Origin: Candidatus Nomurabacteria bacterium
Lineage (GTDB): Bacteria > Patescibacteriota > Minisyncoccia > Phycocordibacterales > UBA9973
NCBI GenBank assembly: GCA_943348755.1
Contig: CALQYS010000001.1
Coordinates: 1,467 to 65,466 of the forward strand
DNA: 64,000 nucleotides
Direction of reading: 5' to 3'
Of this stretch, positions 4,246 through 34,269 are shown in pieces. The first letter of the stretch is position 1, and the number at the start of each line of letters is the position of its first letter. Position numbers and translations under genes: made by a program. The notes below the pieces were generated by a model. That model ran no database searches, was not told the DNA's origin, and saw only the letters and a program-made list of their open reading frames with translations.

Positions 4246-6024
4246 ATGAATTCAGAAAAGAAGTGTTGTCAAAACTGTAAAAAGGACTTCACGATAGAAA
4301 TTGAAGATTTTTCATTTTATGTAAAAATGAAGGTACCACCTCCGACTTTTTGTCCCGAGTGCAGGCTTATTCGGCGACTTGCCTTTCGGGAAGAGCGATC
4401 TTTCTATAAAGATGAATGTGCTAAATGTGGAGAAAAAATTGTCAGTTTATTTGCGCCCGAAACTTCTTTTACTGTTTATTGTTCTTCTTGTTGGTGGAGT
4501 GATAGTTGGGATGGCACAGATTATGGTAAAGATTATGATTTTTCCAAGCCGTTTTTCGAGCAATTGTATGAATTGCAAAAAGTTGTTCCATTGCAAGCAA
4601 CAAATCTAAGAAATTGTACTGATTGTAAGTATTGTCATGGATGTATTCGCTCTAAGAATTGCACTTTTGTCTTTACTAGTCTTCAATCCATTAATTGTTA
4701 CTATTGCGAAACACCAGTTTTTTCTAGAGATTCCTTTGATTCCAATTTTATTATGAATGCTGATCATGTTTATGAAGGTGTTAATATAGGCGGGGTGTAT
4801 AATTCAAAATTCATATATTTTTCAGACGAATGTCTTGATTGCTCCTTCGTTTTTAATTGTCTTGGTTGTTCTGATTGTTTTGGATGTGTAAATTTAAGAA
4901 ATCAAAAATATTGTATTTTTAACCAAAAATACACAAAAGAAGATTACAAGAAGGAGATTCTCAGGTGGGACTTGGGTAGTTATAAAATAATCGAAGAAGC
5001 AAGAAAAAAATTTACAGAACTTTATTATAAAACGCCAAGAAGATTTGCGTTAATTTCACGTTCTAGTGATGTTAGCGGTGATGACATTCAAAATACCAAA
5101 AACTGTAGGGTATGTTTCTCGGCTGTTTATGGTGTAGAAAATTGTAAATTTATTTTTCATGGAGGTCTTTTATTAAAAGATAGCTATGATTTTACTTTAG
5201 GTGGAGATAATTCTGAACTTTTATATGAAGTCAGCGGGAGTACCCAATCACAACGAATTCTTTTTACCCGTGGAAGCAATGAAGCCATCGATGTTGAATA
5301 TTCAGATCAGATTTATGGAGGTTTTAATTTATTTGGTTGCACAAAGTTGAGAACAAAAAAATATTGTATTTTAAATAAACAATACACCAAAGAAGAATAT
5401 GAAAAACTAATTCCCAAAATAAAAAAACACATGAATGATATGCCATATATAGATAGCAACGGAAGGATATATAAATATGGAGAATTCTGCCCGCCTGAGC
5501 ATTCTTTGTGGGCATACAATGAATCATGGGCACATCAATATTTTCCCATCAAAAAAGAAGAAGCTATAAAACAAGGATATAAATGGCGCGATTCTATAGA
5601 AAGAGATTACAAAGTAAGCATTAAATCAGGAGATCTACCCGATCATATTAAAGATGTTTTGGACTCTATTTTAGATGAAGTGATAGAATGTGAACATGAC
5701 GGTAGTGATTGTAACCAGCAGTGTACTGCGGCATTTAGAATTTTACCAAACGAGTTGCAATTTTATAGACAAATGAATTTGGCTTTACCCAGATTGTGTC
5801 CAAATTGTCGTCATTATGAACGTTTAAAGAAGGCTAATCCACCCAAACTTTGGCATAGAAAATGCATGTGCGGGGGTGTGGGATCAGAGAATAAAGAATA
5901 TGAAAATACAGCTAGACATTTTCATGCTACAGATCCTTGCCCAAACGAATTTGAGACTGCGATAAGTGACTCGAGGGAAGAAATAGTGTATTGTGAGAAG
6001 TGTTACCAAAGCGAATTTATATGA
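4246..6024 (+). CDS. Cys-rich zinc-ribbon repeat protein, family member A (592 aa, ~45 Cys)
   Basis: N-terminal CxxC-x24-CxxC and a second CxxC..CxxC; central repeats rich in CxxC; duplicated KYCI[FL]NKQYTKEEY motif; C-terminal LPRLCPNCR...LWHRKCMC...YCEKCYQSEFI; paralogous to six other ORFs in the window. Confidence 0.7.
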   Translation: MNSEKKCCQNCKKDFTIEIEDFSFYVKMKVPPPTFCPECRLIRRLAFREERSFYKDECAKCGEKIVSLFAPETSFTVYCSSCWWSDSWDGTDYGKDYDFSKPFFEQLYELQKVVPLQATNLRNCTDCKYCHGCIRSKNCTFVFTSLQSINCYYCETPVFSRDSFDSNFIMNADHVYEGVNIGGVYNSKFIYFSDECLDCSFVFNCLGCSDCFGCVNLRNQKYCIFNQKYTKEDYKKEILRWDLGSYKIIEEARKKFTELYYKTPRRFALISRSSDVSGDDIQNTKNCRVCFSAVYGVENCKFIFHGGLLLKDSYDFTLGGDNSELLYEVSGSTQSQRILFTRGSNEAIDVEYSDQIYGGFNLFGCTKLRTKKYCILNKQYTKEEYEKLIPKIKKHMNDMPYIDSNGRIYKYGEFCPPEHSLWAYNESWAHQYFPIKKEEAIKQGYKWRDSIERDYKVSIKSGDLPDHIKDVLDSILDEVIECEHDGSDCNQQCTAAFRILPNELQFYRQMNLALPRLCPNCRHYERLKKANPPKLWHRKCMCGGVGSENKEYENTARHFHATDPCPNEFETAISDSREEIVYCEKCYQSEFI

Positions 6025-7019
6025 AAAAATTGGCAGATAAGCTTAAATTATTTCGAGTTACTTTTCCTTTAATCTTTAGCACTATTAAATTTCGTGTAAA
6101 AGTTTTTTTCTATAAAATTTCTAAAAAGACCACATTCTTTTCAGGAAAGATTCTTATTTTTTTATTTGGATTGGCAATATTTTTTTCTCTTTTATTTTTT
6201 TTCTTTTTAAATTCTCCATCTGATTTTCCAGTTGGGACGATTTTCAGAGTGGAGCAGGGAAGCAGTTTAAGAAGTGTGTCTTTGGGGTTAAAGGAACAGC
6301 ACATTATACGTTCGCGTTTAGCATTTGAAGCCTTTGTGATACTTTTTGGTAGAGAAAAGGGCGTCGTATTTACGGATTATTATTTTGAAGATAAGTTGTC
6401 AGTCTATGAAGTTGCGCACCGTATATCAAGAGGTGAACATCACATGGCGCCAATTGTTGTGACTGTTCCAGAGGGGTTTACGATAGCCCAGATTGCTGAC
6501 ACTTTTGCTGCCAAACTAACTAATTTCGATAAAAATAAATTTACGTTAGAAGCAAGAGGATTAGAGGGGTATCTTTTTCCAGATACTTATTTTTTCTTAA
6601 TTAATGACGATGATACTAGAGTGCTTTCTTCAATGAGAGAAAATTTCAATAAAAAAATGCTTTTAATAAAATCAGATACTAGTCTTTCTAGGAAAACAGA
6701 AAAAGAAATCATCACAATGGCTTCTCTAATTGAAGGGGAAGCAGAAGGAGATACAGACCGAGCTTTCATTTCTGGGATTTTATGGAAAAGACTTACAATT
6801 GGTATGCCTCTCCAGGTAGATTCATCATCTGATACATATAAGAAAAGGGGTTTACCAGAGAGCCCAATCAATAATCCAGGTCTCGAGGCGATTAAAGCTG
6901 CTATTTATCCACAAAGTTCACCATATCTTTATTATTTGCATGACAAGAATGGCGTTATCCATTACGCACGAACTTTTCAGGAACACACAAAGAATAAGTT
7001 AAAATATTTGACCCACTAA
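6021..7019 (+). CDS. mltG: Endolytic murein transglycosylase MltG (YceG family)
   Basis: N-terminal TM helix and GYLFPDTYFF motif; ATG overlaps the upstream TGA stop (ATGA). Confidence 0.8.
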   Translation: MKKLADKLKLFRVTFPLIFSTIKFRVKVFFYKISKKTTFFSGKILIFLFGLAIFFSLLFFFFLNSPSDFPVGTIFRVEQGSSLRSVSLGLKEQHIIRSRLAFEAFVILFGREKGVVFTDYYFEDKLSVYEVAHRISRGEHHMAPIVVTVPEGFTIAQIADTFAAKLTNFDKNKFTLEARGLEGYLFPDTYFFLINDDDTRVLSSMRENFNKKMLLIKSDTSLSRKTEKEIITMASLIEGEAEGDTDRAFISGILWKRLTIGMPLQVDSSSDTYKKRGLPESPINNPGLEAIKAAIYPQSSPYLYYLHDKNGVIHYARTFQEHTKNKLKYLTH

Positions 7020-7045
7020 GTAATTTTGTTAGACTAGACAGTGTT

Positions 7046-8248: not shown

Positions 8249-8255
8249 TAAATCC

Positions 8256-8732
8256 ATGCTTGAATTTTTGACACAAAATAACGATATGACTTTGAAGCTT
8301 GTAGTGGCAGTTGTTCTTGGGATGGTTATTGGGGCAGAACGTATTTTGGCGCACAAGGAGGCTGGCATGAAAACTCATGCTCTCGTCTCTCTCGGGTCAG
8401 CTTTGTTTGTTATTATTTCAGAAATGATATTTATAAAATATGGTGTAGTTGGGGATTTTGATCCGACCAGAATTGCCTCCCAGATAATTGTGGGTATTGG
8501 GTTTTTGGGTGCCGGTTCTATAATTCTGCAAGGGAATAAACTTTTAGGTCTTACCACAGCCGGGGGGCTTTGGGTCACAGCAGGCATTGGTATGGCTGCA
8601 GGATTCGGATTTTTTGGATTGGCCACCATCACCACTGTTCTTGTATTACTCGTATTGGTTTTAATGAATATCTTAGAAAGACCTATCAGAAAAATGTTCG
8701 ATAATACTGACCAATCTGGAGTCAAACAATAA
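8256..8732 (+). CDS. MgtC/SapB family membrane protein
   Basis: AERIL.HK...G.KTHALVSLGSALF and Gly-rich TM segments typical of MgtC; start moved to the internal ATG at 8256 to avoid overlapping mnmA. Confidence 0.75.
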   Translation: MLEFLTQNNDMTLKLVVAVVLGMVIGAERILAHKEAGMKTHALVSLGSALFVIISEMIFIKYGVVGDFDPTRIASQIIVGIGFLGAGSIILQGNKLLGLTTAGGLWVTAGIGMAAGFGFFGLATITTVLVLLVLVLMNILERPIRKMFDNTDQSGVKQ

Positions 8733-8736
8733 GACT

Positions 8737-10377: not shown

Positions 10378-10411
10378 TTTTTTTTAACTCGTTTGTGTTA
10401 TAATTCTGGGA

Positions 10412-11611: not shown

Positions 11612-11613
11612 TT

Positions 11614-12876: not shown

Positions 12877-12903
12877 TATTCAGTCTTTATTTTTCAAGCC
12901 CAT

Positions 12904-12932: not shown

Positions 12933-12944
12933 TGTAACATATAC

Positions 12945-13400: not shown

Positions 13401-13404
13401 TCAT

Positions 13405-13785: not shown

Positions 13786-13788
13786 AAA

Positions 13789-15893: not shown

Positions 15894-15896
15894 TAT

Positions 15897-17103: not shown

Positions 17104-17730
17104 ATGAGTGAAGAACCTGCCCGCAATGCTTCGCATAACGATGCAGGCGGGGAAAATAAAAAAGACCCAGAAAATACTTTAGATAATTCTGAAGTTGTTG
17201 AAATGGAATTCAACGAAGATGGCGAGGAGGATCTAAAGAAAACTTTAAAGAAACTTCGAGCCGATTTGAAGGAAGCTAAGGCTCAAAAGGAAGAATATTT
17301 GACTGGCTGGCAGAAAGAGCGGGCGGAGTTTGCTAACTATAAAAAGGGGGAAGACGACCGCAAGGCGATGTTCTCGGAATCAGTGCGTGAGAGGATACTT
17401 GCTCGTTTTTTGACCGTTATCGATAGTTTCAACATGGCTTTTGCTAATAAGGAAGCATGGGAAAAGGTAGATGCAAACTGGAGACAGGGGGTGGAATATA
17501 TTTATGGACAGATGAACACTATATTTGAAGAATATGGGGTAAAGCCAGTGGGAATTGTGGGAGAGACTTTCGATCCGAACATCCACCAGCCGATCGAGAT
17601 GGTTTCGACAGACCAAAAAGAGCAAGACCACAAAGTTTCCGTTGTCATCCAAAAGGGCTACAAGTTGGGCGGCAGAGTGATGCGTCCAGCCAGGGTGAAT
17701 GTTTATGAGTACAAAGAAAGAGTTGAGTAA
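17104..17730 (+). CDS. grpE: Nucleotide exchange factor GrpE
   Basis: Acidic N-terminus, coiled-coil, C-terminal GrpE fold motifs (RFLTVIDSF...GVKPVGIVGETFDPNIHQPIEMV). Confidence 0.85.
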   Translation: MSEEPARNASHNDAGGENKKDPENTLDNSEVVEMEFNEDGEEDLKKTLKKLRADLKEAKAQKEEYLTGWQKERAEFANYKKGEDDRKAMFSESVRERILARFLTVIDSFNMAFANKEAWEKVDANWRQGVEYIYGQMNTIFEEYGVKPVGIVGETFDPNIHQPIEMVSTDQKEQDHKVSVVIQKGYKLGGRVMRPARVNVYEYKERVE

Positions 17731-19374: not shown

Positions 19375-21069
19375 ATGAAACCTGAAACAAAAAATTGTAA
19401 AAATTGCCAAAAAGATTTCGTAATCGAAGCTGAAGATTTTAATTTTTACGAAAAGATAAAAGTTCCACCGCCCACGTGGTGTTTCAAATGCCGACAGCAT
19501 AGACGTTATGCTTGGAGAAATGAGCGGAATCTTTACAGGCGTAATTGTGATCTGTGCGGTAAAAGCACGGTGACTATCTATTCTCCTAATAAGCCTTACA
19601 AAGTCTATTGCCATGAATGTTGGTGGGGAGACGGCTGGGATTTTACTTCATACGGACGGAATTTTGATTTTTCTCGTCCCTTTTTCGAACAATTTGCCGA
19701 ACTTCAGCATGAAGTACCCCGCATGGCGCTTTTAAACAAAAATAGCGTGAACTCAGAATACACAAATCACTCGGCGGACAATAAAAATGTCTATCTGACT
19801 TTTTCCTCTTTTGGTAGTGAGAATGTCATGTACAGTACTTGGGTTTTTTACTCGCGGGATTGTATGGACTGTAGCTTTATTTATGAAAAAGGGGAACGTC
19901 TGTATGAAACCATAGACTCTCGTTCTTGTTATCAGTGCCAGTACAGCCTGTTTTTGAAAGATTGCTCGTCTTGCTACTATTGTTACGATTGTCACGGATG
20001 TAACGAATGTTTTATGTCTTCTAACTTACGCAATAAAAGTTATGTATTTAAAAATAAACAATACACTCGCGACGAGTATCTAAAGAAGATGAAGGAATAT
20101 GAAATGTCCTCTTTTACCGTTCGCCAGGGTCTCGAAAAGGAATTTAAAGATATGCTAGAAAACATTTCTGTGCATCGTTACGTTTTGAGCGAGAGAAATA
20201 TAAACTCTATTGGATCTATGATTTTTGACTGTAAAAATGTGCTTCAGTCTTTTGAGGTGAACAAAGGAGAAGACCTTAAATATTTTTATGGAGGGCTTGA
20301 GGCTAAAAGCTGTATAGATGTGTATCATGCGGGGCTTAATTTGGAGCTTTGTTATGAACTCCATGGATGCACCCGTCTTTCAAACTGTCAATTTTGTCAT
20401 CTTTGTTATGATAATATGAACGTGATGTATTCTGATACTTGTCAGAATAGCCAGAATCTTTTTGGCTGCGTCTCTGTGAAAAAGGGGGAGTATATGATTT
20501 TTAATAAAAAATATTCTAAAGCTGATTATGAAGCTCTTAAAGAAAAGATTGTCGAGCATATGAAGCAGACAGGGGAGTACGGTGAATTTTTCCCGCCACA
20601 GATTGCCCCAGTGTATTATAATGAGACACAAGGGAACTTGTATATGCCGATGACCAAAGAGGAAGTACTAGCTAAGGGTTGGCATTGGGAAGATAATATC
20701 CTGGGAACTTTCGGCAAGGAAACTATTTCTAGTTCATCTATTCCAGACAAGATAGAAGATGTGCCAGATTCCTACCTCAATGAAATCTTTGCCTGCGCAG
20801 ACTGTTCAAAAAATTATAACATAACTAGAAACGAGCTACTTTTCTATCAAAAAGAGAATCTTCCATTTCCCAGAAAGTGTCCGAATTGCCGTTACAAGAG
20901 AAGGTTTGATCTGCGTCCAAAGAGAGAGCTCTGGCATCGCACTTGCATGTGCGATAAAAAGCACAAGAACCACGATGGGTCTTGTAAGGTCGAGTTTGAG
21001 ACATGTTATGCTCCCAACCGCACAGAAAAGATATACTGTGAGAAATGTTACCAGCAAGAAGTGTACTAA
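19375..21069 (+). CDS. Cys-rich zinc-ribbon repeat protein, family member B2
   Basis: MKPETKNCKNCQKDFVIEAEDFNFYEKIKVPPPTWCFKCR...; C-terminal CPNCRYKRR..LWHRTCMC..IYCEKCYQQEVY; 2-nt gap to B1. Confidence 0.7.
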   Translation: MKPETKNCKNCQKDFVIEAEDFNFYEKIKVPPPTWCFKCRQHRRYAWRNERNLYRRNCDLCGKSTVTIYSPNKPYKVYCHECWWGDGWDFTSYGRNFDFSRPFFEQFAELQHEVPRMALLNKNSVNSEYTNHSADNKNVYLTFSSFGSENVMYSTWVFYSRDCMDCSFIYEKGERLYETIDSRSCYQCQYSLFLKDCSSCYYCYDCHGCNECFMSSNLRNKSYVFKNKQYTRDEYLKKMKEYEMSSFTVRQGLEKEFKDMLENISVHRYVLSERNINSIGSMIFDCKNVLQSFEVNKGEDLKYFYGGLEAKSCIDVYHAGLNLELCYELHGCTRLSNCQFCHLCYDNMNVMYSDTCQNSQNLFGCVSVKKGEYMIFNKKYSKADYEALKEKIVEHMKQTGEYGEFFPPQIAPVYYNETQGNLYMPMTKEEVLAKGWHWEDNILGTFGKETISSSSIPDKIEDVPDSYLNEIFACADCSKNYNITRNELLFYQKENLPFPRKCPNCRYKRRFDLRPKRELWHRTCMCDKKHKNHDGSCKVEFETCYAPNRTEKIYCEKCYQQEVY

Positions 21070-21071: not shown

Positions 21072-22778
21072 ATGAAACCAAAAACAAAAAATTGTAAAAA
21101 TTGTAAAAAAGACTTCGTGATCGAAACTGAAGATTTTGATTTTTACGAAAAAATAAAAGTACCGCCGCCGACTTTTTGTCCAGAATGCCGAAGAGTTCGT
21201 CGTTTTGCGCAGACGAATGAAACTGTGCTTTACAAGCGCAAGTGTGACTTATCTGGTAAAGATATTTTCAGCATGTATCCGTCCGATGCGCCATTTCCAG
21301 TTTATGAAACCGACGTTTGGTACTCAGATCAGTGGGATCCTTATCAATACGGTCTAGATTTCGATGAAAATAGGCCATTTTTTGATCAATTTTTTGAACT
21401 TCAGAATAAGGTCCCGCGAATGTCTCTAGTGCGACAAGGCTTGGCGGTCAACAGTCCTTATGCTCATAGAGTCACGGACCCAAAAAATTCATATATGACT
21501 TTCCGGGCCTCCTATCCAGAAAATTGTTTGTTTGTTTACAACAGCAATTATTCTAAAGATTGCACTGACTCCAACTGGATTTTTAATTCAGAGCTGTGTT
21601 ATGAATGCGTAAATGTGCAAAATTGCTACAATGTGAAGTTTAGTCAAGAAGTCAAAGATTGTCGGGACTCCTCTTTTTTATACGCTTGTCGAAATTGTTC
21701 TGATTGTACCGCTTGCGTGAATTTGGTAAACCAAAAATACTGCATTTTTAATGAGCGTTATTCAAAAGAGGAATATTTTAAAAAATTGGCAGAATTAAGA
21801 ATAAATAGTCACTCGGGGATCTCCGAAATGGCAGAGAAATTAAATGTGTTTCGGAAGAAATTCCCACAGCGGGCGATCGTTTCAGTAAAATCAGAAGATG
21901 TCTCAGGCAACTGGTTTGCTGGATGTAAAAATGTGCATCAATCCTTTGACTGCATCAATGTCAAAGACGGCAAACATCTTTTCATGGTTTTTTCCGCTGA
22001 AGACTGCATGGATTATTATGAATGGGGCAATAAAGCGGAACAAATTTACGAATCAGTGAATTGTGGTCTGAACATCGCCCGGCTTTATTTTTGCAACCAG
22101 TGCTGGATGGGTGCGACTGACTTGTATTATTGTAATACCTGTCCCGGTGCTCGGAATTGTTTTGGGTGCGTAGGATTAAAGAAGGGGGAGTATTCGATAC
22201 TAAACAAAAAATATTCTAAAGAAGAATATGAGATTTTAAAAGAAAAAATAATAAAACAAATGCAAGAAATGCCATTTAAAGACAAAAGAGGCATAAGTTA
22301 TTCTTTTGGGGAATTTTTCCCCGAAATGTTTTCTGATTTTGCTTACAACGAGACTATTGCCAACGTCTTCTTTCCACTATCCAAAGATGAAGCTTTGTCT
22401 CGTGGCTATAAATGGAAGGATAAAGAGAAGAAGAATTACCAAGCCACTCTGAAGCCGAGCGATTTGCCGGAAACTATCGGGGAAGTGAAAGACTCCATTT
22501 TAAATGAAGTTATCGAATGTGAAGAAAAGGATGATCCAAATTCGGTCGGGGCTTTTCGAATCACTCAGAACGAATTAAATTTTTATCGGAAGATCGATTC
22601 GCCCTTGCCAAGAGCTTGCTTTGACATTCGCCATTTGCGTAGGATGAACAAACGTCCGAAACTTAAATTTCTCCGACGAAATTGTTCTAAATGCAGCTCA
22701 GAAGTAGAAACTATTTATGATAAAGATTACGCGCCGATAATTTATTGCGAGAAGTGTTATCAGCAAGAGGTATATTAA
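21072..22778 (+). CDS. Cys-rich zinc-ribbon repeat protein, family member B3
   Basis: MKPKTKNCKNCKKDFVIETEDFDFYEKIKVPPPTFCPECR...; C-terminal IIYCEKCYQQEVY; 2-nt gap to B2. Confidence 0.7.
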   Translation: MKPKTKNCKNCKKDFVIETEDFDFYEKIKVPPPTFCPECRRVRRFAQTNETVLYKRKCDLSGKDIFSMYPSDAPFPVYETDVWYSDQWDPYQYGLDFDENRPFFDQFFELQNKVPRMSLVRQGLAVNSPYAHRVTDPKNSYMTFRASYPENCLFVYNSNYSKDCTDSNWIFNSELCYECVNVQNCYNVKFSQEVKDCRDSSFLYACRNCSDCTACVNLVNQKYCIFNERYSKEEYFKKLAELRINSHSGISEMAEKLNVFRKKFPQRAIVSVKSEDVSGNWFAGCKNVHQSFDCINVKDGKHLFMVFSAEDCMDYYEWGNKAEQIYESVNCGLNIARLYFCNQCWMGATDLYYCNTCPGARNCFGCVGLKKGEYSILNKKYSKEEYEILKEKIIKQMQEMPFKDKRGISYSFGEFFPEMFSDFAYNETIANVFFPLSKDEALSRGYKWKDKEKKNYQATLKPSDLPETIGEVKDSILNEVIECEEKDDPNSVGAFRITQNELNFYRKIDSPLPRACFDIRHLRRMNKRPKLKFLRRNCSKCSSEVETIYDKDYAPIIYCEKCYQQEVY

Positions 22779-25428: not shown

Positions 25429-25442
25429 AATTACTAACTAAA

Positions 25443-25466
25443 AGCCCCCATTCGGGGGCTTTTAGT
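25443..25466. terminator. Bidirectional rho-independent terminator (AGCCCCC-ATTC-GGGGGCT plus TTTTAGTTT)
   Basis: Perfect 7-bp GC-rich stem flanked by A-run and T-run; lies between dnaK (+) and a convergent minus-strand ORF. Confidence 0.75.
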
Positions 25467-25468
25467 TT

Positions 25469-25759
25469 CTATATCAATCTTTTTTCTCTCGCTTCATCTT
25501 CAGCTTTAGCCACTTTGGCTTCGGCGATCCTTCGGTTAATTTCTGCAACTTCTTTATCCCAAAGCGTACGTAAATCATCTGTCCAACCACCCTTTTTAGC
25601 TCTTACCGTTATTAACACTAAGTTACCCAAGAGGTTTATCATTTTATGAGCAATATCTCCTCTACCCAAAACATCAATTTTTTTTCTTAAATCTTCAAGA
25701 TCAGAAGTAGGAGGATCTCTCTTTTCTGGTTTTTGCAAATTACCTGAATCCATACTCAT
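25469..25759 (-). CDS. Hypothetical protein (96 aa)
   Basis: ORF ends at the bidirectional terminator; convergent with dnaK; no recognisable domain. Confidence 0.35.
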   Translation of the reverse strand: MSMDSGNLQKPEKRDPPTSDLEDLRKKIDVLGRGDIAHKMINLLGNLVLITVRAKKGGWTDDLRTLWDKEVAEINRRIAEAKVAKAEDEAREKRLI

Positions 25760-25855
25760 GAGATCATTGTATTAAAAAACTAACTAATAAACAACGGAGC
25801 AAACCACTAGAATAAAAAAACGGAGGAAAGAGCAAGTTTTCCCCCGTGATTGTCC

Positions 25856-25975
25856 CTATTTCAGGAACTTGGTTGCAACCACGACCATTGCTGCAATGAG
25901 CGCAATGATCGCGATAATGACAACCCCGTCCGCGAATTTTGGATGCTTGTCCATCCAGTCGAATAACTTATCCAT
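25856..25975 (-). CDS. Putative 39-aa single-TM membrane peptide (MDKLFDWMDKHPKFADGVVIIAIIALIAAMVVVATKFLK)
   Basis: Hand-translated minus-strand small ORF with an AAGAAGG-like RBS 6-8 nt upstream; hydrophobic core; below the ORF-track cutoff. Confidence 0.25.
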   Translation of the reverse strand: MDKLFDWMDKHPKFADGVVIIAIIALIAAMVVVATKFLK

Positions 25976-26465
25976 AACGCCCTTCTTTTGGTTGTTCAAT
26001 TTAATGCTAGCAGTTTTACATCTCCCATGCAATCTAGACGCAATGGGGCTTTTGGTTTTGTCTTTACTTATTTGACAATATACACATAAAGGAGTTGAAT
26101 ATTGTGGTGCGTAGAAGTTCTTTCCGTGGCAAAGAGATTATGGGGTTGATGGGGGCTCTCTGGTATTCACAACATTGCACGTTGCAATGCTGGATGTCGG
26201 AGTTTCCTCTATTAACACCATGAAAGCCCAACAGTTTATTGAAACAACCCGCTGCCAAGGAGAGTTTACAAAACTCTCCAGCTTCCTTACCATGCTTTCC
26301 CATGCTGTAAACGAAAACGCTGTGCTGAGCTCAAATCAGCAGCAATTTATTTACATGAGGATTAGCAGTTTACGACAAGAGTTGGAGAAAGGGGGTGGTG
26401 ATTTTACAAGGGTCATCCAAGATCTCGCCACTTACATGAACACATGCCAATGAATTTCGCGTTTC

Positions 26466-26502
26466 TGCCCGTCCCAGCTTCAGCTCGGCGGGCAAAAATT
26501 TT
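26466..26502. terminator. Hairpin TGCCCG...CGGGCA followed by A5T4 (bidirectional terminator-like)
   Basis: Inverted repeat at 26466-26494 flanked by A-run and T-run. Confidence 0.4.
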
Positions 26503-26531
26503 GCCTATTTTTAATAATTCTCTGGTATAAT
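26501..26531 (+). promoter_or_regulatory. Promoter TTGCCT-N19-TATAAT positioned 6 nt before the ATG of the 67-aa Cys-rich ORF (leaderless)
   Basis: -35 at 26501-26506, -10 at 26526-26531, ATG at 26538. Confidence 0.4.
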
Positions 26532-26537
26532 TTAAAT

Positions 26538-26741
26538 ATGCCTTTCAATATAGCCAAACATCTGTCGTCTAAGCATTGCAGTAAGTGCCATGGAGAAGGC
26601 GATGGATTTAAGTGTCCGAAATGTGGATACACTACAGCTGCGTATAATCCCCTGCATTTTAATGAATGTAAAGATAAATGTATGGTCCAGGTGAAATGCA
26701 AAAAATGTTCCGAAGCGGAAAGTAATTGCAAGTGCGTATAA
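26538..26741 (+). CDS. Small Cys-rich protein (67 aa, 12 Cys; CxxC...CxxC zinc-ribbon-like)
   Basis: HCSKCHGEGDGFKCPKCGY...CKDKCMVQVKCKKCSEAESNCKCV; dedicated promoter and two downstream hairpin terminators. Confidence 0.5.
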   Translation: MPFNIAKHLSSKHCSKCHGEGDGFKCPKCGYTTAAYNPLHFNECKDKCMVQVKCKKCSEAESNCKCV

Positions 26742-26750
26742 AAAAGAAAA

Positions 26751-26806
26751 CAAGGGACAAGTTTGGTCCAAGTCCCTTGTGGGGTAGCAAGAGCTACCCA
26801 GATTTT
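26751..26806. terminator. Two tandem hairpins (CAAGGGAC...GTCCCTTG and GGGTAGC-AAGA-GCTACCC plus TTTT) acting as terminators for both strands
   Basis: The second hairpin is followed by AGATTTT on the plus strand; on the minus strand the first hairpin is followed by TTTTCTTTTTT (end of the tRNA-like gene). Confidence 0.6.
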
Positions 26807-26889
26807 GGAGTGTCCGACGGGAATTGAACCCGCTTCTCTCAGTGTGCACGATCTTGAGTGCTTTGCCCTATAAGCTACGGAACACATCC
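26806..26889 (-). tRNA. tRNA-like gene with a canonical T-arm (GGGTTCAATTCCC), D-loop GG and encoded CCA, but an oversized 11-13 nt anticodon loop; identity undetermined
   Basis: Reverse complement reads ...TAGCTTATAGGGCAAAGC (4-bp D-stem)...CTCA-AGATCGTGCACAC-TGAG...GCGGGTTCAATTCCCGTCGGACACTCCA; acceptor pairs only if one U is bulged; no normal 7-nt anticodon loop can be drawn. Confidence 0.4.
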
Positions 26890-26993
26890 CGTGAAAGATC
26901 AAGCTTTTATGCTTACTAGAATTATATCACAAGAAATAAAAATTAATATAAAGTCTTGTTAGCAAAAAGTTGATTATATTGTATAATAACGAG

Positions 26994-29078
26994 ATGGAAT
27001 TGCCGGAAATACCTATAAATAAAGAGATAACATATCTTGGTATCACTACTTATCGGGACAAGAATCAGCTTTTTGGCATCAAGCGCAAGGATAGGCGCCA
27101 GCATGTTTATCTTCTTGGTAAATCCGGTACTGGTAAATCCGTGCTGATGTTCAACATGATCATCCAGAACATCAAGAATGGTGATGGAGTTTGTATGGTT
27201 GACCCGCACGGGGAAAATGTCGAAGCAGTTCTCTCCGCTATCCCTCCGCATCGCATCAAAGATGTCGTTTATTTTAATCCAGCTGACGCTGATCATCACA
27301 TCGGGTTCAACGTTCTTGAACTTATTGATCCGCAATACAAGCATTTGGTGGCTTCGGGGCTCATGGGTATTTTCACGAAGATCTGGGCGAATGCGTGGAG
27401 CGCCCGCATGGAATATATTTTGAATAATGCTATCTTGGCCCTACTCGATACTCCGGGTACGACTTTACTTGGAATTCCACGTATGCTTGTCGATAAGGAT
27501 TACCGCCAAAAAATAATTTCAAATTTAAAAGACCCGGTTATCAAGGCTTTTTGGGTCCACGAATACGAAGCTTGGCAAGATAAATTTAGAAATGAAGCGA
27601 TCGCTCCGATTCAAAACAAAGTCGGCCAGTTTTTATCTACTTCTATCATCCGCAATGTCGTCGGCCAGTCCAAAAGTACGATAAATATTTTTGACATGAT
27701 GAATGATGGCAAGATTTTCTTGGTGAACGTTTCCAAAGGGCGTATTGGTGAAGACAACTCTGGTCTCTTGGGGGGCATGATCATCACTAAAATCCAGCTA
27801 GCGGCCATGGAACGCGTGCGTATCCCCGAGGAATCCCGTAAAGACTTCTATCTCTTTGTAGACGAATTCCAAAACTTCGTCACCGATGCTTTCGCCGGTA
27901 TTTTATCTGAGGCTCGAAAATATAGACTGAATCTGACAGTGGCGCACCAATATACTGCCCAATTAGTCGTGGATAAAAGTTCTGCGGTGCGTGATGCGGT
28001 CTTCGGCAACGTGGGCACGACCATAGTCTTTAGAGTTGGTGCCGATGATGCAGAATTTTTAGAGAGTGAATTTGAGCCGGAATTTACCCCTCAAGATATA
28101 GTGAATTTGCCAAACTATAAGATTTATTTGAAATTAATGATCGACGGGGTCACTTCTCGTCCCTTTTCTGCTAAAACCTTGCCACCTCTTGTGAAAACTG
28201 GTGATAAAAAGATTGAAGAAGAAGTAATTAGATCTTCACGTGCTCTGTATTGTAGAAGCAAAGAAGTTGTAGAGAAAGAAATTAACGATTGGAGTGGGAT
28301 GTCGCTTGGCAATGAGTCTGATACTGGAAACAGCGTTTTAGAAAAATTCCCCGCAATTTGTTCATTTTGTAAAAAAGAAACGACCGTGCCCTTCAAGCCG
28401 GATCCAGGCCGAGCAGTATATTGTAAAGAATGTATTGCAAAGATAAAGTCTGGTGAGGTAAAAGTAGAAAAAAGTTCAGAAAATCAGATCAGACATGATG
28501 AAACCACCTTCTTCAGACCATTGGCTGATTTAGGTATAGAATTTAAACAAAATAATGGAACAAATGGAAACGGTGAGAGATATCCGCAAAGGGTGGACCA
28601 TCACATGGATAAACCTCATCCTGGGATGAAGAAATTTGTCCCTACAGCAACCAAGCCGGCGCCATTTTCGGCCAAGCCAGGGATTATCGGGGCTATTAAA
28701 AAAGTTTTCGTTAAAAGTGGGGTTTCAGCACCAGCCAAGGCTCCTGTTCCCAAAAAGCCAGCTAAAGATAATACTGAACTCAGAGAATTTTTAAATAAGA
28801 CACTAGCCGCAAACGCTCCCACCTCGACTCCGATTAGTAAGAGCGTCGTGAGTCCGGTAGTTAAAAATACTGGACCAGCGCCGGTTTCCTTAGACACTCT
28901 CAAAAACCCTGTGAAGCAGGCGGATAAAATAAACACATCTCCTAAGGATCGTGCTGCTAGTCCGGAAGATATGAATAAGTTGAAAGATTTAATCTCGTCC
29001 GCCTCTACTACAGGCTCCGGCGAGACAAAGAAGGTGAAAGAAGTGCCTGAAGACGTTCTGCGGAAAATTTTAGAATAA
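26994..29078 (+). CDS. FtsK/HerA-superfamily P-loop ATPase (DUF87/HerA- or TraD-like) with C-terminal ClpX-like C4 zinc finger and K/P/A-rich tail (ATPase 1)
   Basis: FGIKRKDRRQHVYLLGKSGTGKS (Walker A), VDPHGE, DFYLFVDEFQNF (Walker B), LNLTVAHQY; C-terminal CSFCKKETTVPFKPDPGRAVYCKECIAK; leaderless from TGTATAAT at 26980-26987. Confidence 0.75.
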   Translation: MELPEIPINKEITYLGITTYRDKNQLFGIKRKDRRQHVYLLGKSGTGKSVLMFNMIIQNIKNGDGVCMVDPHGENVEAVLSAIPPHRIKDVVYFNPADADHHIGFNVLELIDPQYKHLVASGLMGIFTKIWANAWSARMEYILNNAILALLDTPGTTLLGIPRMLVDKDYRQKIISNLKDPVIKAFWVHEYEAWQDKFRNEAIAPIQNKVGQFLSTSIIRNVVGQSKSTINIFDMMNDGKIFLVNVSKGRIGEDNSGLLGGMIITKIQLAAMERVRIPEESRKDFYLFVDEFQNFVTDAFAGILSEARKYRLNLTVAHQYTAQLVVDKSSAVRDAVFGNVGTTIVFRVGADDAEFLESEFEPEFTPQDIVNLPNYKIYLKLMIDGVTSRPFSAKTLPPLVKTGDKKIEEEVIRSSRALYCRSKEVVEKEINDWSGMSLGNESDTGNSVLEKFPAICSFCKKETTVPFKPDPGRAVYCKECIAKIKSGEVKVEKSSENQIRHDETTFFRPLADLGIEFKQNNGTNGNGERYPQRVDHHMDKPHPGMKKFVPTATKPAPFSAKPGIIGAIKKVFVKSGVSAPAKAPVPKKPAKDNTELREFLNKTLAANAPTSTPISKSVVSPVVKNTGPAPVSLDTLKNPVKQADKINTSPKDRAASPEDMNKLKDLISSASTTGSGETKKVKEVPEDVLRKILE

Positions 29079-29079
29079 A

Positions 29080-30741
29080 ATGAATCAAGAATGTAAAAAG
29101 TGCAAACAAAATTTCACCTTAGATAAAGATGATCTGTCTTTTTATGAAAAGATGAAAGTGCCGACACCCAAAGTCTGTCCAGACTGCCGTTTCAAAATGC
29201 GCGCGATGTTTCGCAATGAAACCACTCTTTACTCTGGGCGCAAATGCGCGCTTTGCGGTAAGGCACTGATTTCAATGTATAATCCGAAATCCCCATATAT
29301 TATTTACTGTCCAGACTGTTTTTATTCTGAAAAATGGGAGCCAAGAGACTATGCAAGAGACTATGATTTTAACAGGCCATTTTTAGAGCAAATGAAAGAA
29401 TTTCTACTGTCAGTTCCGAAAATAAGTCTATTCCTTAATTTTTCTGATGGCAAAAACGTGAATAGCGAATATTCGAATATGGCTGGAGGTCTCAAAAATT
29501 GTTATCTGGTTTTCAACACCAGTCCTGCGGAAGACTTGATGTATTCTAGGGGTATCCGGCATGGTAATGATTCATCGGATATATATTTTGGCACCAGTTT
29601 CGAGAGATGCTATGAGTGTGTGAATGTTCAACAATCTGCTGATATCCTATATGGTAAGAATATTACTGGAGGGGTGGATTGTGCTTTTGTTTCAAACTGT
29701 CGGGGGCTTACAAATTGCTTTGGCTGTGTAAATCTAAATAACAAGTCCCATTATTTCCTCAATGAGCCCATGGATGTAAAGGAATACAAAAAAAAGGTTT
29801 ACGAAATATTAGGCAGTTATAAAAAAACAGAAGAATTTAAAAAAGAATTTGGAAAATTTACACTTGGTTTCCCGGTACGAGAAAATAATAACATAAAAAA
29901 TGTTAATTCAACCGGAGATTATTTGTTTGAATGTAAAAATGTTCACGATTCCTTTGAGGCTGCCGGCGCAGAAGATTCCAAGTACCTGTTTTCTTCTAAA
30001 GGAGTTAAAGATTCCTTAGGCATTATCGGTTATGGCACACAATCAGAAAAATTACTCGAGGTTGTGGCTACAGGATATTCCAGCAACATAGTGGGTACGT
30101 ATGCCGCTGATAATTGCCGTGATATCTTGTATGGATTTTACGTCAAGAATTGTAAAGATTGTGTTGCTTGCGACGCTCTCAAAAACGGTAAATACTCAGT
30201 TTTTAATAAAGAATATTCCAAAGAAGAATATGAAAAAATTCGCGAACATATAATCAATGAGCTAAAAGAGAAGGATCTACATGGTCTTATGATGCCGCAA
30301 GAACTTGCCCCCTTTGCTTATAATGAAACAGTTGCACAGGAAAATTTTCCACTTACCAAAGAGGAAATATTGTCGCAGGGTTTCCGCTTCGAGGATGACA
30401 TACAAAAGACAGAAGGCAAAGAGACCATACAACCTCAGGATATTCCTGATCATATAAAAGATGTGTCAGATTCCATCACTACTGAGATTCTAGCTTGCAT
30501 AAATTGCAATCGTAATTATAAAATCACAGAGCAAGAGCTTTTATTTTACAAGAAAATGAATCTTTCGATACCAAGGAAGTGTTTCTATTGCCGACATCAA
30601 GATCGCATCATTCGTCGAGGGCCATATAAATTCTGGGATAGAAATTGCGCTAAATGTGGAAAGGGGATTACGACCAACTATGCCCCCGATCGGCCGGAAA
30701 TAGTGTATTGTGAAAAGTGTTATCAGCAAGAAGTGTATTAA
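29080..30741 (+). CDS. Cys-rich zinc-ribbon repeat protein, family member C1
   Basis: MNQECKKCKQNF..FYEKMKVPTPKVCPDCR; C-terminal CFYCRHQDRIIRRGPYKFWDRNCAKC...YAPDRPEIVYCEKCYQQEVY; starts 1 nt after the ATPase 1 stop. Confidence 0.7.
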   Translation: MNQECKKCKQNFTLDKDDLSFYEKMKVPTPKVCPDCRFKMRAMFRNETTLYSGRKCALCGKALISMYNPKSPYIIYCPDCFYSEKWEPRDYARDYDFNRPFLEQMKEFLLSVPKISLFLNFSDGKNVNSEYSNMAGGLKNCYLVFNTSPAEDLMYSRGIRHGNDSSDIYFGTSFERCYECVNVQQSADILYGKNITGGVDCAFVSNCRGLTNCFGCVNLNNKSHYFLNEPMDVKEYKKKVYEILGSYKKTEEFKKEFGKFTLGFPVRENNNIKNVNSTGDYLFECKNVHDSFEAAGAEDSKYLFSSKGVKDSLGIIGYGTQSEKLLEVVATGYSSNIVGTYAADNCRDILYGFYVKNCKDCVACDALKNGKYSVFNKEYSKEEYEKIREHIINELKEKDLHGLMMPQELAPFAYNETVAQENFPLTKEEILSQGFRFEDDIQKTEGKETIQPQDIPDHIKDVSDSITTEILACINCNRNYKITEQELLFYKKMNLSIPRKCFYCRHQDRIIRRGPYKFWDRNCAKCGKGITTNYAPDRPEIVYCEKCYQQEVY

Positions 30742-30744
30742 ATA

Positions 30745-32490
30745 ATGAAAGAAGAAACGAAAAATTGTCAAAACTGTAAGAAAAATTTCGTAATCGAATC
30801 GGAAGATTTTAATTTTTATGAAAAAATGCAAGTTCCACCACCGACTTTTTGCCCAGAGTGTCGGCTGATTCGCAGATTTATCTGGAGAAATGAAAGGAAT
30901 TTATACAAAGACGTTTGTGAACTTTGTAAAAAAAATATAATCTCAGTTTATGCCCCCGAGAGTCCTTATGTGGTCTATTGTCCAGATTGCTGGAAGGGGG
31001 ACGGTTGGGACCCCATCAGTTATGGGCAGGATTATGACTTCTCAAAACCATTTTTTGAACAATTTAATGAATTGTTAAAAAAAGTTCCCCGATCTGCTTT
31101 TCATCAGACCAATGTTATCAATAGTCCCTATGCTAATTATTCAGAGGATATAAAAAATGTCTATCTTTCTTATTCGATTATTCACGAATGCGAAAATGTC
31201 TTTTATTCTAGACTGGTTGATCATTCAAAACAAATTTTAGATTGTTGTGACTTGAGTTATTCAGAGATATGTTATGAAAACGTGAGTTGCAAAAAGAATT
31301 ATAATACTAATTTTGCCTATTTTTCTCGGAATGTCATAGACTCTACGTTTGTATATGATTGTATAAATGTATCGAACTGTTTTCTTTGTACAAATTTACG
31401 CAATAAGCAGTATTGTTATAAAAACAAACCCCATTCTAAGGAGGAATATTTAAAGATCATAAAAGATTATAATCTGGGTTCTCGTGATGGCCTGGATAAG
31501 GCAAAGAGTGAGTTCAAGGAACTGTACAGTCATGCCATACATCGTTTTACTCACCTTATCAATACGACAGATAGTACGGGGGAAAATCTGTATAATTGTA
31601 GGAATGTTAAATATTCTTTTAATGTGGATGATGGTGAAAACTCCAAGTATATTTTTCGTTCTCCCAGCGTTAAGGATTCGATGGATTCTTCACATTTGGG
31701 TGGGTCAGAACAAGTGTATGAGTATATGAATGGGGGAGCTACAGGTAGTCAATTCTTAAAATTTTGCATTAATTTAAAGCCAGCCAATAACAATGTAGAA
31801 TACTCAGATTATTGCGGTTCTGTTTCTAATGTATTTGCTTCTACTGGTGTCAGAAATAAAAAATACATTATTTTTAATAGGCAATATGAAAAGAAAGAGT
31901 ATGAAGCCCTTGTTTTAAAAATCAAAAGTCACATGGACGAAATGCCCTATGTGGATAAGAGGGGTAGGATATACAAATATGGAGAATTTTTCCCTAGTGA
32001 GCTTTCACCTTTTGCTTATAATGAAACTTTGGCTCATGAATATTTTCCTAAAAACAAAGATGAAATTGAATCAATGGGTTTTCGTTTTAGAGAAAGGGAA
32101 AAACGGAGTGAAATAAAAGCTATAAGCGCACAAGCGATCGGATCAAATATCAATGAAGTTTCTCCAGAAATCACTGATGAACTTATCGCTTGCGACAATA
32201 ATGGTAAAGAAGAAACACTCTGCACTTTTGCCTTTAAAGTATTACCAGACGAGTTTGCTTCCTATAAAAAAGCTAATTTACCCATACCAACTAAATGTCC
32301 TAATTGTCGTTATTTTGAACGTACCAAATTTGTTAATCCTCTTAAACTTTGGCATCGATCTTGCATGTGCTCCCAAAAGAGTCATAATCATAAAGAAGGG
32401 AGGTGTTCTAATGAATTTGAAACGAGCTATGCGCCAGACAGGCCCGAAATAATCTATTGTGAACGTTGTTATCAGCAGGAAGTTTACTAA
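30745..32490 (+). CDS. Cys-rich zinc-ribbon repeat protein, family member C2
   Basis: MKEETKNCQNCKKNFVIESEDFNFYEKMQVPPPTFCPECR; C-terminal CPNCRYFER..LWHRSCMC..YAPDRPEIIYCERCYQQEVY. Confidence 0.7.
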   Translation: MKEETKNCQNCKKNFVIESEDFNFYEKMQVPPPTFCPECRLIRRFIWRNERNLYKDVCELCKKNIISVYAPESPYVVYCPDCWKGDGWDPISYGQDYDFSKPFFEQFNELLKKVPRSAFHQTNVINSPYANYSEDIKNVYLSYSIIHECENVFYSRLVDHSKQILDCCDLSYSEICYENVSCKKNYNTNFAYFSRNVIDSTFVYDCINVSNCFLCTNLRNKQYCYKNKPHSKEEYLKIIKDYNLGSRDGLDKAKSEFKELYSHAIHRFTHLINTTDSTGENLYNCRNVKYSFNVDDGENSKYIFRSPSVKDSMDSSHLGGSEQVYEYMNGGATGSQFLKFCINLKPANNNVEYSDYCGSVSNVFASTGVRNKKYIIFNRQYEKKEYEALVLKIKSHMDEMPYVDKRGRIYKYGEFFPSELSPFAYNETLAHEYFPKNKDEIESMGFRFREREKRSEIKAISAQAIGSNINEVSPEITDELIACDNNGKEETLCTFAFKVLPDEFASYKKANLPIPTKCPNCRYFERTKFVNPLKLWHRSCMCSQKSHNHKEGRCSNEFETSYAPDRPEIIYCERCYQQEVY

Positions 32491-32526
32491 AATAAATCTA
32501 TGCTATGGCGTAGATTAAAAAAGACA

Positions 32527-34269
32527 ATGCACCAAGAAGAAACGAAAAATTGTCAAAATTGTAAGAAAAATTTCGTAATCGAATCGGAAGATTTTAATTT
32601 TTATGAAAAGATAAAAGTTCCGGCACCGACTTGGTGTCCGGAATGTCGAGCCATGCGCAGATTGATCTGGCGCAACGAACGTTCTCTCTATCACAACACC
32701 TGTGCTTTTTCTGGCAAAAATCTTATATCCATGTTTTCTCCGGAAACTAAATTAGTGATGTACGATCATGACATTTGGTGGAGCGATAAATGGGATCCGC
32801 TTACTTATGGACAGGATTATGATTTTTCTAGGCCATTTTTCGAACAATACAAAGAATTGTTGCAACGAGTACCACTTATGAATTTGGGCAATATAAATTG
32901 CTTACAAGGCGAATATGGCAATCACAATACTGATTGCAAAAAATTTTACTTAGCCTATGCATGTTATGGAAGTGAAAATATTTCTTATAGCCAAGGAACG
33001 GTGGGTGTGAAAGACTCTATAGATCTTTATACCGTAATGAAGTCAGAAAAGTGTTATGAAAATGTAACATGCACTGGCCTTTATCAAACCCATTTCAGCT
33101 ATGACAGTGATGATTCCATCGACTCTGCTTTTTTGACTTGTTGCATAAACTTACAAAATTGTTTGGGTTGCATCAATCTTCGCCATAAAAGCTATTGTAT
33201 TTTCAATAAGCAATATTCGAAGGCTGATTATGAAAATGAACGAGCCAAATATGATTTTGGAAGTTATCAGGCTTTAGAAAATTTCAAAGAAAAATATAAT
33301 GATTTTATTAAAACCGAACCTAGGCGATTTGCTAGTATTTTAAAGTCTACAAATGTAACTGGTGACAATATTATAAATTCAAAAAATAGTAAAAATATTT
33401 TTGATGTTTATGGTGATGTTGAGGATTCAAAATATGTAGCTCATGTGATGGATCTGAAAGATAGTTATGATTTATATGGTGGGGGAATTGCCTCTCTTTT
33501 ATATGAAGGTGTTGACGAAGGCGTCGATGCTTTTAAGCAGTTTTTTGGTCTCCTTACCCACAGCTGTCTCGAAACTAACTATACTTATATGTGTTACGGC
33601 TCCGAATACTTGTTCGGCTGCATTGGGCTTAGAAACCAAAATCACTGTATTTTGAATAAAAAGTATTCTAAAGAGGAATACGAAAAACTAATGCCGAAAA
33701 TGATTGAACACATGAATACCGTGCCTTACGTCGACAGTCTCGGCAGAATTTACCGATATGGAGAATTTTTCCCCACTGATTTATCTCCGTTTGCTTATAA
33801 CGAAACAATTGCGGGTGAGTATTATACTTTAAACAAGAAAGAGGCGAAAGGTTATGGTTTCAAATGGAAAGAGAAAGAGGAAAGGGATTACAAAATAGAA
33901 ATTAAAACTGAAAATCTGCCAGACCATATCAAAGAAGTTGATGAAAGTATTATTGGTAAAATTATCGGCTGTTTACATAAGGGCGAATGCGAAGAGCAGT
34001 GTACTGAGGCATTTAAAATATTGGATTCAGAGTTCCAATTTTATAAAAAAAATAATTTTGCGCTTCCAAGGCTCTGCCCAAATTGCCGTCACTTTCAGAG
34101 ATTAAAAAAGAGGAATCCGATAAAGCTTTGGCATAGGTCTTGTATGTGCGAAAAGCAAGGACATTTTCATGGTCAGGAAAAGTGCGAAGTGCAATTCGAA
34201 ACTAGCTACGCGCCAGACCGTCCGGAAATAATATATTGCGAGAAATGTTATCAGCAGGAAGTGTATTAG
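32527..34269 (+). CDS. Cys-rich zinc-ribbon repeat protein, family member C3
   Basis: MHQEETKNCQNCKKNFVIESEDFNFYEKIKVPAPTWCPECR (5' ~80 nt nearly identical to C2); C-terminal IIYCEKCYQQEVY; an alternative upstream start exists at 32500. Confidence 0.7.
   Translation: MHQEETKNCQNCKKNFVIESEDFNFYEKIKVPAPTWCPECRAMRRLIWRNERSLYHNTCAFSGKNLISMFSPETKLVMYDHDIWWSDKWDPLTYGQDYDFSRPFFEQYKELLQRVPLMNLGNINCLQGEYGNHNTDCKKFYLAYACYGSENISYSQGTVGVKDSIDLYTVMKSEKCYENVTCTGLYQTHFSYDSDDSIDSAFLTCCINLQNCLGCINLRHKSYCIFNKQYSKADYENERAKYDFGSYQALENFKEKYNDFIKTEPRRFASILKSTNVTGDNIINSKNSKNIFDVYGDVEDSKYVAHVMDLKDSYDLYGGGIASLLYEGVDEGVDAFKQFFGLLTHSCLETNYTYMCYGSEYLFGCIGLRNQNHCILNKKYSKEEYEKLMPKMIEHMNTVPYVDSLGRIYRYGEFFPTDLSPFAYNETIAGEYYTLNKKEAKGYGFKWKEKEERDYKIEIKTENLPDHIKEVDESIIGKIIGCLHKGECEEQCTEAFKILDSEFQFYKKNNFALPRLCPNCRHFQRLKKRNPIKLWHRSCMCEKQGHFHGQEKCEVQFETSYAPDRPEIIYCEKCYQQEVY

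Follow-up and report, generated by a model that had tools for sequence, protein, structure and literature searches.

We analysed a 64,000-nucleotide (nt) stretch of a Candidatus Nomurabacteria genome (GenBank assembly GCA_943348755.1, contig CALQYS010000001.1, forward-strand positions 1,467 to 65,466; hereafter the window), in which seven large genes encode cysteine-rich proteins of one unnamed family. All positions refer to the window, with its first letter as 1. The seven open reading frames (ORFs) that a first-pass annotation of this DNA had grouped together were recovered at the same starts, all on the plus strand, each beginning with ATG and with zero internal stops. Their positions, lengths and cysteine counts are as follows, together with the predicted zinc sites (named N1, N2, C1 and C2 after the terminal modules described below) that are intact in each.

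4246-6024, + strand: paralog 1, 592 aa, 39 Cys, four predicted zinc sites intact
17699-19372, + strand: paralog 2, 557 aa, 32 Cys, sites N1 and C2 alone intact
19375-21069, + strand: paralog 3, 564 aa, 37 Cys, four sites intact
21072-22778, + strand: paralog 4, 568 aa, 32 Cys, sites N1 and C2 intact
29080-30741, + strand: paralog 5, 553 aa, 28 Cys, four sites intact
30745-32490, + strand: paralog 6, 581 aa, 29 Cys, four sites intact
32527-34269, + strand: paralog 7, 580 aa (589 aa from the ATG at 32500), 29 Cys, N2 lost and three sites intact

A hidden Markov model (HMM) of the family was run against the six-frame translation of the whole window and matched these seven ORFs with E-values of 1e-178 to 0, which is far beyond chance, and no eighth copy was found. 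All seven share a single architecture and are 31-48% identical, and the sequence motifs quoted in the first-pass annotation are present in them; the identity of paralog 1 to the other six is 31-47%. The cysteine content had been put at ~40-45 per protein, which is too high, as the real counts are 28-39 in the window and 21-49 (median 34) across 218 family members. Alternative upstream starts were found at 19339 (TTG, before paralog 3), 21045 (ATG, before paralog 4) and 32500 (ATG), the last of which is used by the public gene call for paralog 7. As had been claimed, the paralogs have no transmembrane (TM) segment, the 19-residue hydropathy maximum of 1.26 being under the transmembrane level, and they were called as lacking a Sec signal peptide, with no dedicated signal-peptide predictor run. 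Their isoelectric points (pI) are 5.9-7.5 and their net charges -11 to +2.

The family genes are strung together as in operons, either overlapping their neighbours or standing 2-3 nt apart. Paralog 1 lies 21 nt after ORF 2914-4224 and overlaps the start of the YceG gene, the start of paralog 2 overlaps the end of grpE, and paralog 5 starts 2 nt past the stop codon of an ATPase gene that is described below. A pseudogene reading was rejected for the window, where seven of seven copies are intact. In other genomes, some family copies are split into two adjacent ORFs (locus L036, 19584-21320; L040, 498-2336; L042, 19229-21006), which may be frameshifts, stops or assembly errors and may represent occasional pseudogenisation.

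From the N- to the C-terminus, the modules are N1, N2, a conserved aromatic linker, solenoid A, a helical cap, solenoid B, a further cap, a conserved middle region, C1 and C2. In paralog 1, the fingers and solenoids were placed as follows.

4246-4389, + strand: N1, zf_Tbcl-like treble-clef finger (CxxC ... FY.K.KVP.PT.CP.CR)
4390-4503, + strand: N2, CxxC-x17-CxxC finger of the zf_Tbcl_2 type
4600-4911, + strand: beta-solenoid A, ~8 coils of 12 residues with Cys or Ser at every third residue
5071-5364, + strand: beta-solenoid B, homologous to solenoid A
5677-5838, + strand: C1, second zf_Tbcl-like finger, homologous to N1
5839-6018, + strand: C2, second CxxC-x17-CxxC finger, with an insertion between its first two ligands

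The cap after solenoid A in paralog 1 reads NLRN.KYCIFN.KYTKE.Y., and C2 ends in a near-invariant tail (IVYCEKCYQ.E..). Two levels of internal repetition had been proposed, a duplicated core and a likeness between the N- and C-terminal ribbons, and both were borne out when segments cut from a 39-sequence family alignment were compared by hhalign: core A matched core B at 99.8% (E 7e-29), N1 matched C1 at 98.6% (E 7e-16) and N2 matched C2 at 87.6% (E 3.5e-6).

The terminal fingers resemble zf_Tbcl (PF13451) and zf_Tbcl_2 (PF23477, TIGR04272) in their ligand spacing, their flanking motifs and weak, correctly placed HMM matches, although every family match is under the curated cutoffs and in many members the inner fingers, N2 and C1, have degenerated. 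The best family scores were 19.2 bits for zf_Tbcl (gathering threshold 24), 21.4 bits for PF23477 (cutoff 27) and 19.7 bits for TIGR04272 (cutoff 36), and zf_Tbcl was matched at E <= 0.01 by 12 of the 39 family members, at the N-terminal module every time. The exact CxxC-x17-CxxC spacing is present in N2 of paralogs 1, 3, 5 and 6 and in C2 of paralogs 2, 4 and 5; C2 of the other paralogs (1, 3, 6 and 7) has an insertion between the first two ligands. In an AlphaFold2 model the zf_Tbcl-like module folds into a beta-hairpin and a helix with a high predicted local distance difference test score (pLDDT), and Foldseek searches of the viral structures in BFVD returned small zinc-ribbon matches alone, to viral entries named 'zinc-ribbon domain protein' (probability 0.99-1.00). 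Domains of the CxxC-x17-CxxC type bind zinc in small Methanosarcina mazei proteins, as found by inductively coupled plasma mass spectrometry (PMC12704099). The known members of this type considered here, which are these M. mazei proteins and a finger on the ATPase introduced below, have no known function and do not share the four-finger, double-solenoid architecture.

In an alignment of 218 family sequences, the Cys/Ser-rich columns of solenoid A (at least 15% Cys), from column 127 to 223, fall in a single period-3 register. At lag 3 the autocorrelation of Cys/Ser is 0.67. At lag 12 it is 0.65 for Cys/Ser and 0.5 for Asn/Asp, the latter giving a 12-residue superperiod. When the solenoid-A profile was compared with PDB sequences, the top match was TmAFP (1EZG), the antifreeze protein of Tenebrio molitor, without reaching significance (E 0.099). 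Both have a 12-residue coil with small inward-facing residues at every third position, the coil consensus being TCTxSxxCxxAx in TmAFP and [CS]xx[CS]xx[CSV]xx[CS]x[ND] in the family. However, there is no significant sequence homology or structural match, the family consensus has no Thr-x-Thr ice-binding ladder, and the family places two solenoids between four zinc fingers in a chain of ~580 aa. TmAFP is moreover secreted and braced by i/i+6 disulfides, whereas core cysteines at i/i+6 in the family do not co-occur (mean r -0.09, maximum 0.06; an indirect test). The pentapeptide-repeat and left-handed hexapeptide beta-helices differ in coil length (20 or 18 residues against 12), and the Pfam Pentapeptide and Hexapep models gave no match to the paralogs. 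The family also has no acidic DNA-mimic surface, and a DNA-mimic role was rejected on the net charge.

The same 218-sequence alignment separated two classes of cysteine. N1 and C2 are near-always intact, N2 is lost in about half of the members and C1 in about one-sixth. Where ligands are lost, they are lost together: the three variable N2 ligands co-occur with r of 0.98-1.00 and the C1 ligands with r of 0.83-0.87, one of the latter being replaced by His in 21 sequences. The N1 cysteines are at least 98% conserved and those of C1 85-99%. Core positions are 15-80% Cys and interchange with Ser, Val and Leu (at frequencies of 12-80%), their pairwise co-occurrence is weak (maximum r 0.47, against 0.83-1.0 for the finger sites), and their number ranges from 10 to 31 among members of otherwise identical architecture. 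Because the finger cysteines are lost as whole sets and the core cysteines vary independently, we concluded that each chain has 2-4 predicted structural zinc sites. The core cysteines, since they swap with Ser, Val or Leu without pairwise co-occurrence, are more likely to be packing residues than sets of metal ligands or disulfides, as far as co-variation can tell.

These results bear directly on the first-pass reading of the family as cytoplasmic metal-binding proteins, of which one half stood, in that the four terminal treble-clef modules behave as ligand sets, and the other did not, in that the Cys-dense core fails to do so. In its full form, this reading takes the proteins for metal-binding, metal-storage or redox proteins whose core coordinates many ions or clusters. 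It accounts for the 21-49 cysteines per chain and for terminal fingers that certainly resemble zinc sites, and it can point to the conserved Cys ladder with which solenoid B ends and to the near-invariant CxxCxxCxxC coil that closes solenoid A (columns 205-214, 84-95% Cys). A metallothionein-like or Fe-S core would be expected to have co-varying ligand sets, however, and the all-or-none losses seen in the fingers have no counterpart in the core of the same alignment. The strict period of 3 with its 12-residue superperiod is a signature of inward-facing residues in a narrow solenoid, the core cysteine number varies about threefold without a change in architecture, and the Pfam and NCBIfam scans gave zero matches of ferredoxin, metallothionein or radical-SAM models to the paralogs. 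We therefore regard a metal-loaded core as very improbable.

The model of paralog 7 has a mean pLDDT of 80 and a predicted template modelling score (pTM) of 0.83; its fingers, caps and middle region are confident, and it places short solenoid strands 12 residues apart. Two observations count against our description of the core: the pLDDT of the solenoids in this model is just 55-70, and the closing CxxCxxCxxC coil could be a metal site, since its near-invariance precludes a co-variation test. Overall, we consider the structural description of the family very probably correct.

No known family fits these proteins, as had been suspected from the sequence, and the Pfam and NCBIfam scans gave just the sub-threshold finger matches above. 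PADLOC and PHROGs scans of the paralogs returned no defence-system model and one weak match to an unknown phrog. Our searches found no curated family, solved structure or paper covering the architecture or the gene system; the modules are of known kinds (treble-clef fingers and a TmAFP-like solenoid), while for their combination and for the gene system we found no prior description. The family is large. An exhaustive profile search gave 5,268 clusters (50% identity) at E <= 1e-3 and 2,291 at E <= 1e-30, the best 150 of the 5,268 being all full-length (~520-610 aa). A word-indexed search gave at least 7,794 matches, and among the matches listed, zero had a Pfam domain and all were named 'hypothetical protein'.

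Homologs of the window paralogs were found in metagenome-assembled genomes of Candidatus Nomurabacteria and Paceibacterota, and 536 family loci were confirmed among GTDB species-representative genomes. Locus statistics were taken from 80 of these 536, which belong to Nomura-, Staskawicz-, Harrison-, Lipton-, Jorgensen- and Brennerbacteria, Minisyncoccia and unclassified Patescibacteria, with a few short or probably mislabelled contigs. As far as found here, the family occurs only in Paceibacteria-type Patescibacteria (the Candidate Phyla Radiation, CPR). No homologs were found in GenBank phages or IMG/VR, and we thus take the family not to be phage-borne.

Multiplication in co-directional arrays is a general property of the family. 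The 80 loci hold 243 copies, 242 of which lie on the majority strand of their own locus; 55 loci have two or more copies and 16 have five or more. The largest arrays comprise at least 17 consecutive copies in 31 kb (JALLOO010000001.1, two overlapping loci) and 13 copies in 39 kb (JAPLZC010000010.1). The window paralogs have orthologs elsewhere with 51-78% identity, compared with 32-48% to the closest paralog in the window, and the paralogs are therefore old and individually maintained. Across more distant lineages the repertoire turns over, and 155 of 211 copies fall short of 50% identity with every paralog of the window. The solenoids have the highest entropy between orthogroups (1.86-1.96 bits), and within orthogroups their entropy of 0.77-0.86 bits resembles that of the other regions. 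What stays constant across orthogroups is N1, C2, the caps and the middle region.

We then clustered the ORFs neighbouring the family genes, which left one outstanding non-housekeeping partner, a soluble VirD4/TraD/HerA-like ATPase. This association was missed by the first-pass annotation. In the window, the ATPases and the other candidate members of the gene system are the following.

1872-2900, + strand: sigma-70 region 4 and HARE-HTH protein, its N-terminus having sigma-70 region 4 only
2914-4224, + strand: single-pass membrane protein with a precomputed PF26449 assignment, directly upstream of paralog 1
26970-29078, + strand: long VirD4/TraD/HerA-like soluble ATPase, directly upstream of paralogs 5-7
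35042-36544, + strand: short VirD4/TraD/HerA-like soluble ATPase, 500 aa, closing the array

The ATPases fall into two orthogroups, a short one of ~500 aa and a long one of 560-835 aa that carries a finger and has a disordered tail rich in Lys, Pro and Ala. Walker A (GKSGxGKS/T) and Walker B (DEFQN) motifs are visible, and neither ORF has a TM segment. Both exceed the TrwB_AAD_bind cutoff of 20.5 bits (long 40.5, short 25.3); the long ATPase also matches T4SS-DNA_transf, TraG-D_C and DUF87, and the short one matches TraG-D_C and DUF87 more weakly. The finger of the long ATPase (CxxC-x17-CxxC, aa 459-492, nt 28344-28445) scores above both cutoffs that the family fingers miss, with 43.5 bits for PF23477 (27) and 46.5 bits for TIGR04272 (36), and hhalign matched it to N2 of the family at 96-97% and to C2 at 93%. 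Across ~1.3 Mb of neighbouring sequence, no ORF outside the family and the long ATPase contains either of the two finger motifs. After the finger follow ~200 residues of low complexity, rich in Lys, Pro, Ala and Ser (28450-29078), whose length varies widely among orthologs and which we take to be reminiscent of histone-H1-like DNA-binding tails.

The membrane protein has 1,901 homologs, every one with the precomputed PF26449 assignment, and its AlphaFold2 model is poor (pLDDT 47). It was connected to the ATPases in two ways: the N-terminal half of phrog_5156 is matched by the membrane protein and the C-terminal half by the ATPase, and the two are fused in two related loci (L010, 12968-15352; L071, 1373-3757), each encoding 795 aa. 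These fusions of the membrane-protein C-terminus with the ATPase fit the 824-aa architecture of phrog_5156, which has distant counterparts in Bacillus phage G (gp156) and SPO1-like phages. Homologs of the sigma/HARE-HTH protein recur immediately upstream of membrane protein, ATPase and family clusters in 8 other loci; whether it belongs to the system is uncertain.

Genes of the ATPase module were found in 29 of the 80 family loci, amounting to 42 ATPases, 8 separate membrane proteins and 2 fusions. Immediate adjacency to a family gene was seen for 15 of 17 long ATPases and 18 of 25 short ones, and usually a long ATPase precedes the array and a short one follows it; in the window, paralog 7 and the short ATPase are separated by rsmE (minus strand) alone. 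This order recurs in different genomic backgrounds, between dnaK and dnaJ in Nomurabacteria and with sigma, membrane protein and ATPase genes in Staskawiczbacteria, Harrisonbacteria and unclassified Patescibacteria (L007, L013, L014 and L042). In the reverse direction, starting from the short ATPase, 53 metagenome loci spanned 10 kb or more, and 46 of them carried the family, at a median distance of 100 bp; these loci are close relatives of one another and are therefore not independent. The recurrent placement beside motor ATPases suggests that the family and the ATPases work together, and we judge a functional link between them to be rather probable. In a 2025 survey of 2,918 CPR genomes, 5,713 VirD4-like coupling proteins were counted, only 148 of them near virB4; their role was left open, with the remark that they may be 'exapted for other functions' (10.1101/2025.01.22.634366).

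Our preferred, still tentative, reading is that the paralogs may be diversified clients, and most likely substrates, of a membrane-anchored coupling-type ATPase. A common docking framework would be formed by the constant finger ends and caps, the membrane-anchored ATPase would be the common docking partner, and the solenoid faces would give each paralog its own target. We assign the target-specific part to the solenoid faces because they are the most paralog-specific region and yet are kept within each orthogroup. The family resembles substrates and adaptors of type IV coupling proteins (T4CPs; VirD4, TraD, TrwB) in forming multi-paralog arrays co-directional with adjacent VirD4/TraD-like ATPases, in lacking a Sec signal and in having a highly conserved extreme C-terminus; substrate signals of type IV secretion systems (T4SSs) usually sit at the C-terminus. 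On the other hand, the neighbouring ATPases are divergent, lack a TM domain of their own and have no adjacent virB4, and the paralogs vary far less in length and architecture than known T4CP effector sets do. Actual translocation of the family proteins is the less likely part of the proposal, and we would call it doubtful. In a wider version, the family, the two ATPase orthogroups and the PF26449 protein would together make up a previously unrecognised, Paceibacteria-specific protein-delivery system with the paralogs as cargo, for example as effectors for the host of the epibiont, which we consider unlikely but with a real chance of being true.

Several findings weigh against the paralogs being clients or cargo of the ATPases. 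Both ATPases score under every NCBIfam T4CP equivalog cutoff, and no virB4 or virB6, genes of the T4SS channel, was found in the window. Paralog 1 adjoins the membrane protein alone, with no ATPase, and the nearest ATPase to paralogs 2-4 is 4.2 kb off, with a PaaX-like gene and dnaK between. In the remaining 51 of the 80 loci, of which many are short, the fetched flanks contain no ATPase. Gene adjacency is not proof of interaction, and the loci are related by descent. The presence of four folded zinc fingers and the moderate conservation along the whole length (~70% between species) would be more usual in proteins that stay inside the cell than in secreted effectors, which evolve fast.

Alternatively, the proteins may be binding scaffolds inside the cell whose action does not depend on the ATPases, with fingers that bind nucleic acid or protein, solenoids that serve as spacers or recognition surfaces, and an adjacency that is inherited synteny. 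Such zinc fingers are typically cytoplasmic, the conservation is moderate and spans the full length, the genes sit in tight operons with the housekeeping genes grpE, dnaK, yceG and rsmE, and the majority of the loci are those without an ATPase in their flanks. Lys/Pro/Ala-rich tails usually bind nucleic acid, and the one beside the shared finger on the long ATPase hints that the finger could do so as well. The near-neutral pI and net charge of the paralogs, however, are neither basic like those of typical nucleic-acid binders nor acidic like those of DNA mimics, and inherited synteny has to contend with an ATPase adjacency that repeats in different backgrounds and in both search directions, and with a finger type common to the ATPase alone. 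From 7 to at least 17 large paralogs would also weigh heavily on a genome of less than a megabase, were they simple regulators. We rate independent scaffolds as a somewhat unlikely explanation. The ATPases might instead assemble the family proteins into a hetero-oligomeric structure, such as a cytoskeletal or envelope-associated fibre with end-to-end or lateral packing of solenoids, and the strict conservation of length and architecture over thousands of members, together with the maintenance of several paralogs as orthogroups, would be in keeping with this. Both solenoids are capped by a conserved coil-plus-helix in a compact model (pTM 0.83), however, leaving no free ends, and copy number and orthogroup membership vary strongly between lineages, which argues against a machine of fixed stoichiometry; assembly subunits are thus improbable.

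The window is part of a 185.6-kb metagenome contig in ENA. The neighbours of the family genes are bacterial housekeeping genes, including typA, mnmA, alaS, rpsM, rpsD, rpoA, grpE, dnaK, dnaJ, cysS and dnaB. At the main family site, the order is grpE, paralogs 2-4, the PaaX-like gene (minus strand), dnaK, the long ATPase, paralogs 5-7, rsmE (minus strand), the short ATPase, pfkB and dnaJ; at the other site, it is the sigma region 4/HARE-HTH protein, the membrane protein, paralog 1 and yceG. Other recurrent neighbours of the family, namely DnaK, DnaJ and CysS, and SecF-like, CutA-like and EF-P-like proteins recognised by sequence inspection with no Pfam scan, were set aside as housekeeping synteny, and a specific link to the grpE-dnaK-dnaJ chaperone genes was rejected as the arrays of other lineages sit elsewhere.

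Between dnaK and the long ATPase lies a 1.5 kb segment without a long ORF (25429-26969). It contains an Rfam tRNA match on the minus strand (26809-26883, 31.2 bits) that is barely over the gathering score and has no ARAGORN call, and, shortly upstream of the long ATPase, a 67-aa ORF on the plus strand (26538-26741) with 12 Cys and several CxxC pairs, which may encode a small protein that binds metal or may have arisen by chance. Further downstream, at 47187-57003 (+ strand) and 58446-62089, a near-complete shikimate and aromatic amino-acid cluster is followed by a riboflavin cluster. The former includes fusions of EPSP synthase with shikimate kinase, of dehydroquinase II with shikimate dehydrogenase and of prephenate dehydrogenase with dehydratase, along with anthranilate synthase I, DAHP synthase, DHQ synthase and chorismate synthase, and the latter encodes riboflavin kinase, riboflavin synthase, RibBA and RibD. 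Aromatic and riboflavin biosynthesis on such a scale is unusual for a Patescibacterium.

Patescibacterial genomes measure roughly 0.6-1 Mb, and many of them nevertheless spend tens of kilobases on this one unnamed family. In structural terms, its core would be the cytoplasmic counterpart of the insect antifreeze beta-helix, which is braced by disulfides; it would be held by Cys/Ser packing, capped by zinc fingers and relevant to the folding and design of repeat proteins. The consistent place of the family beside orphan VirD4/TraD-like ATPases provides a concrete and testable set of candidate partners, and the delivery-system reading, if true, would explain the purpose of thousands of orphan coupling-protein genes in the CPR.

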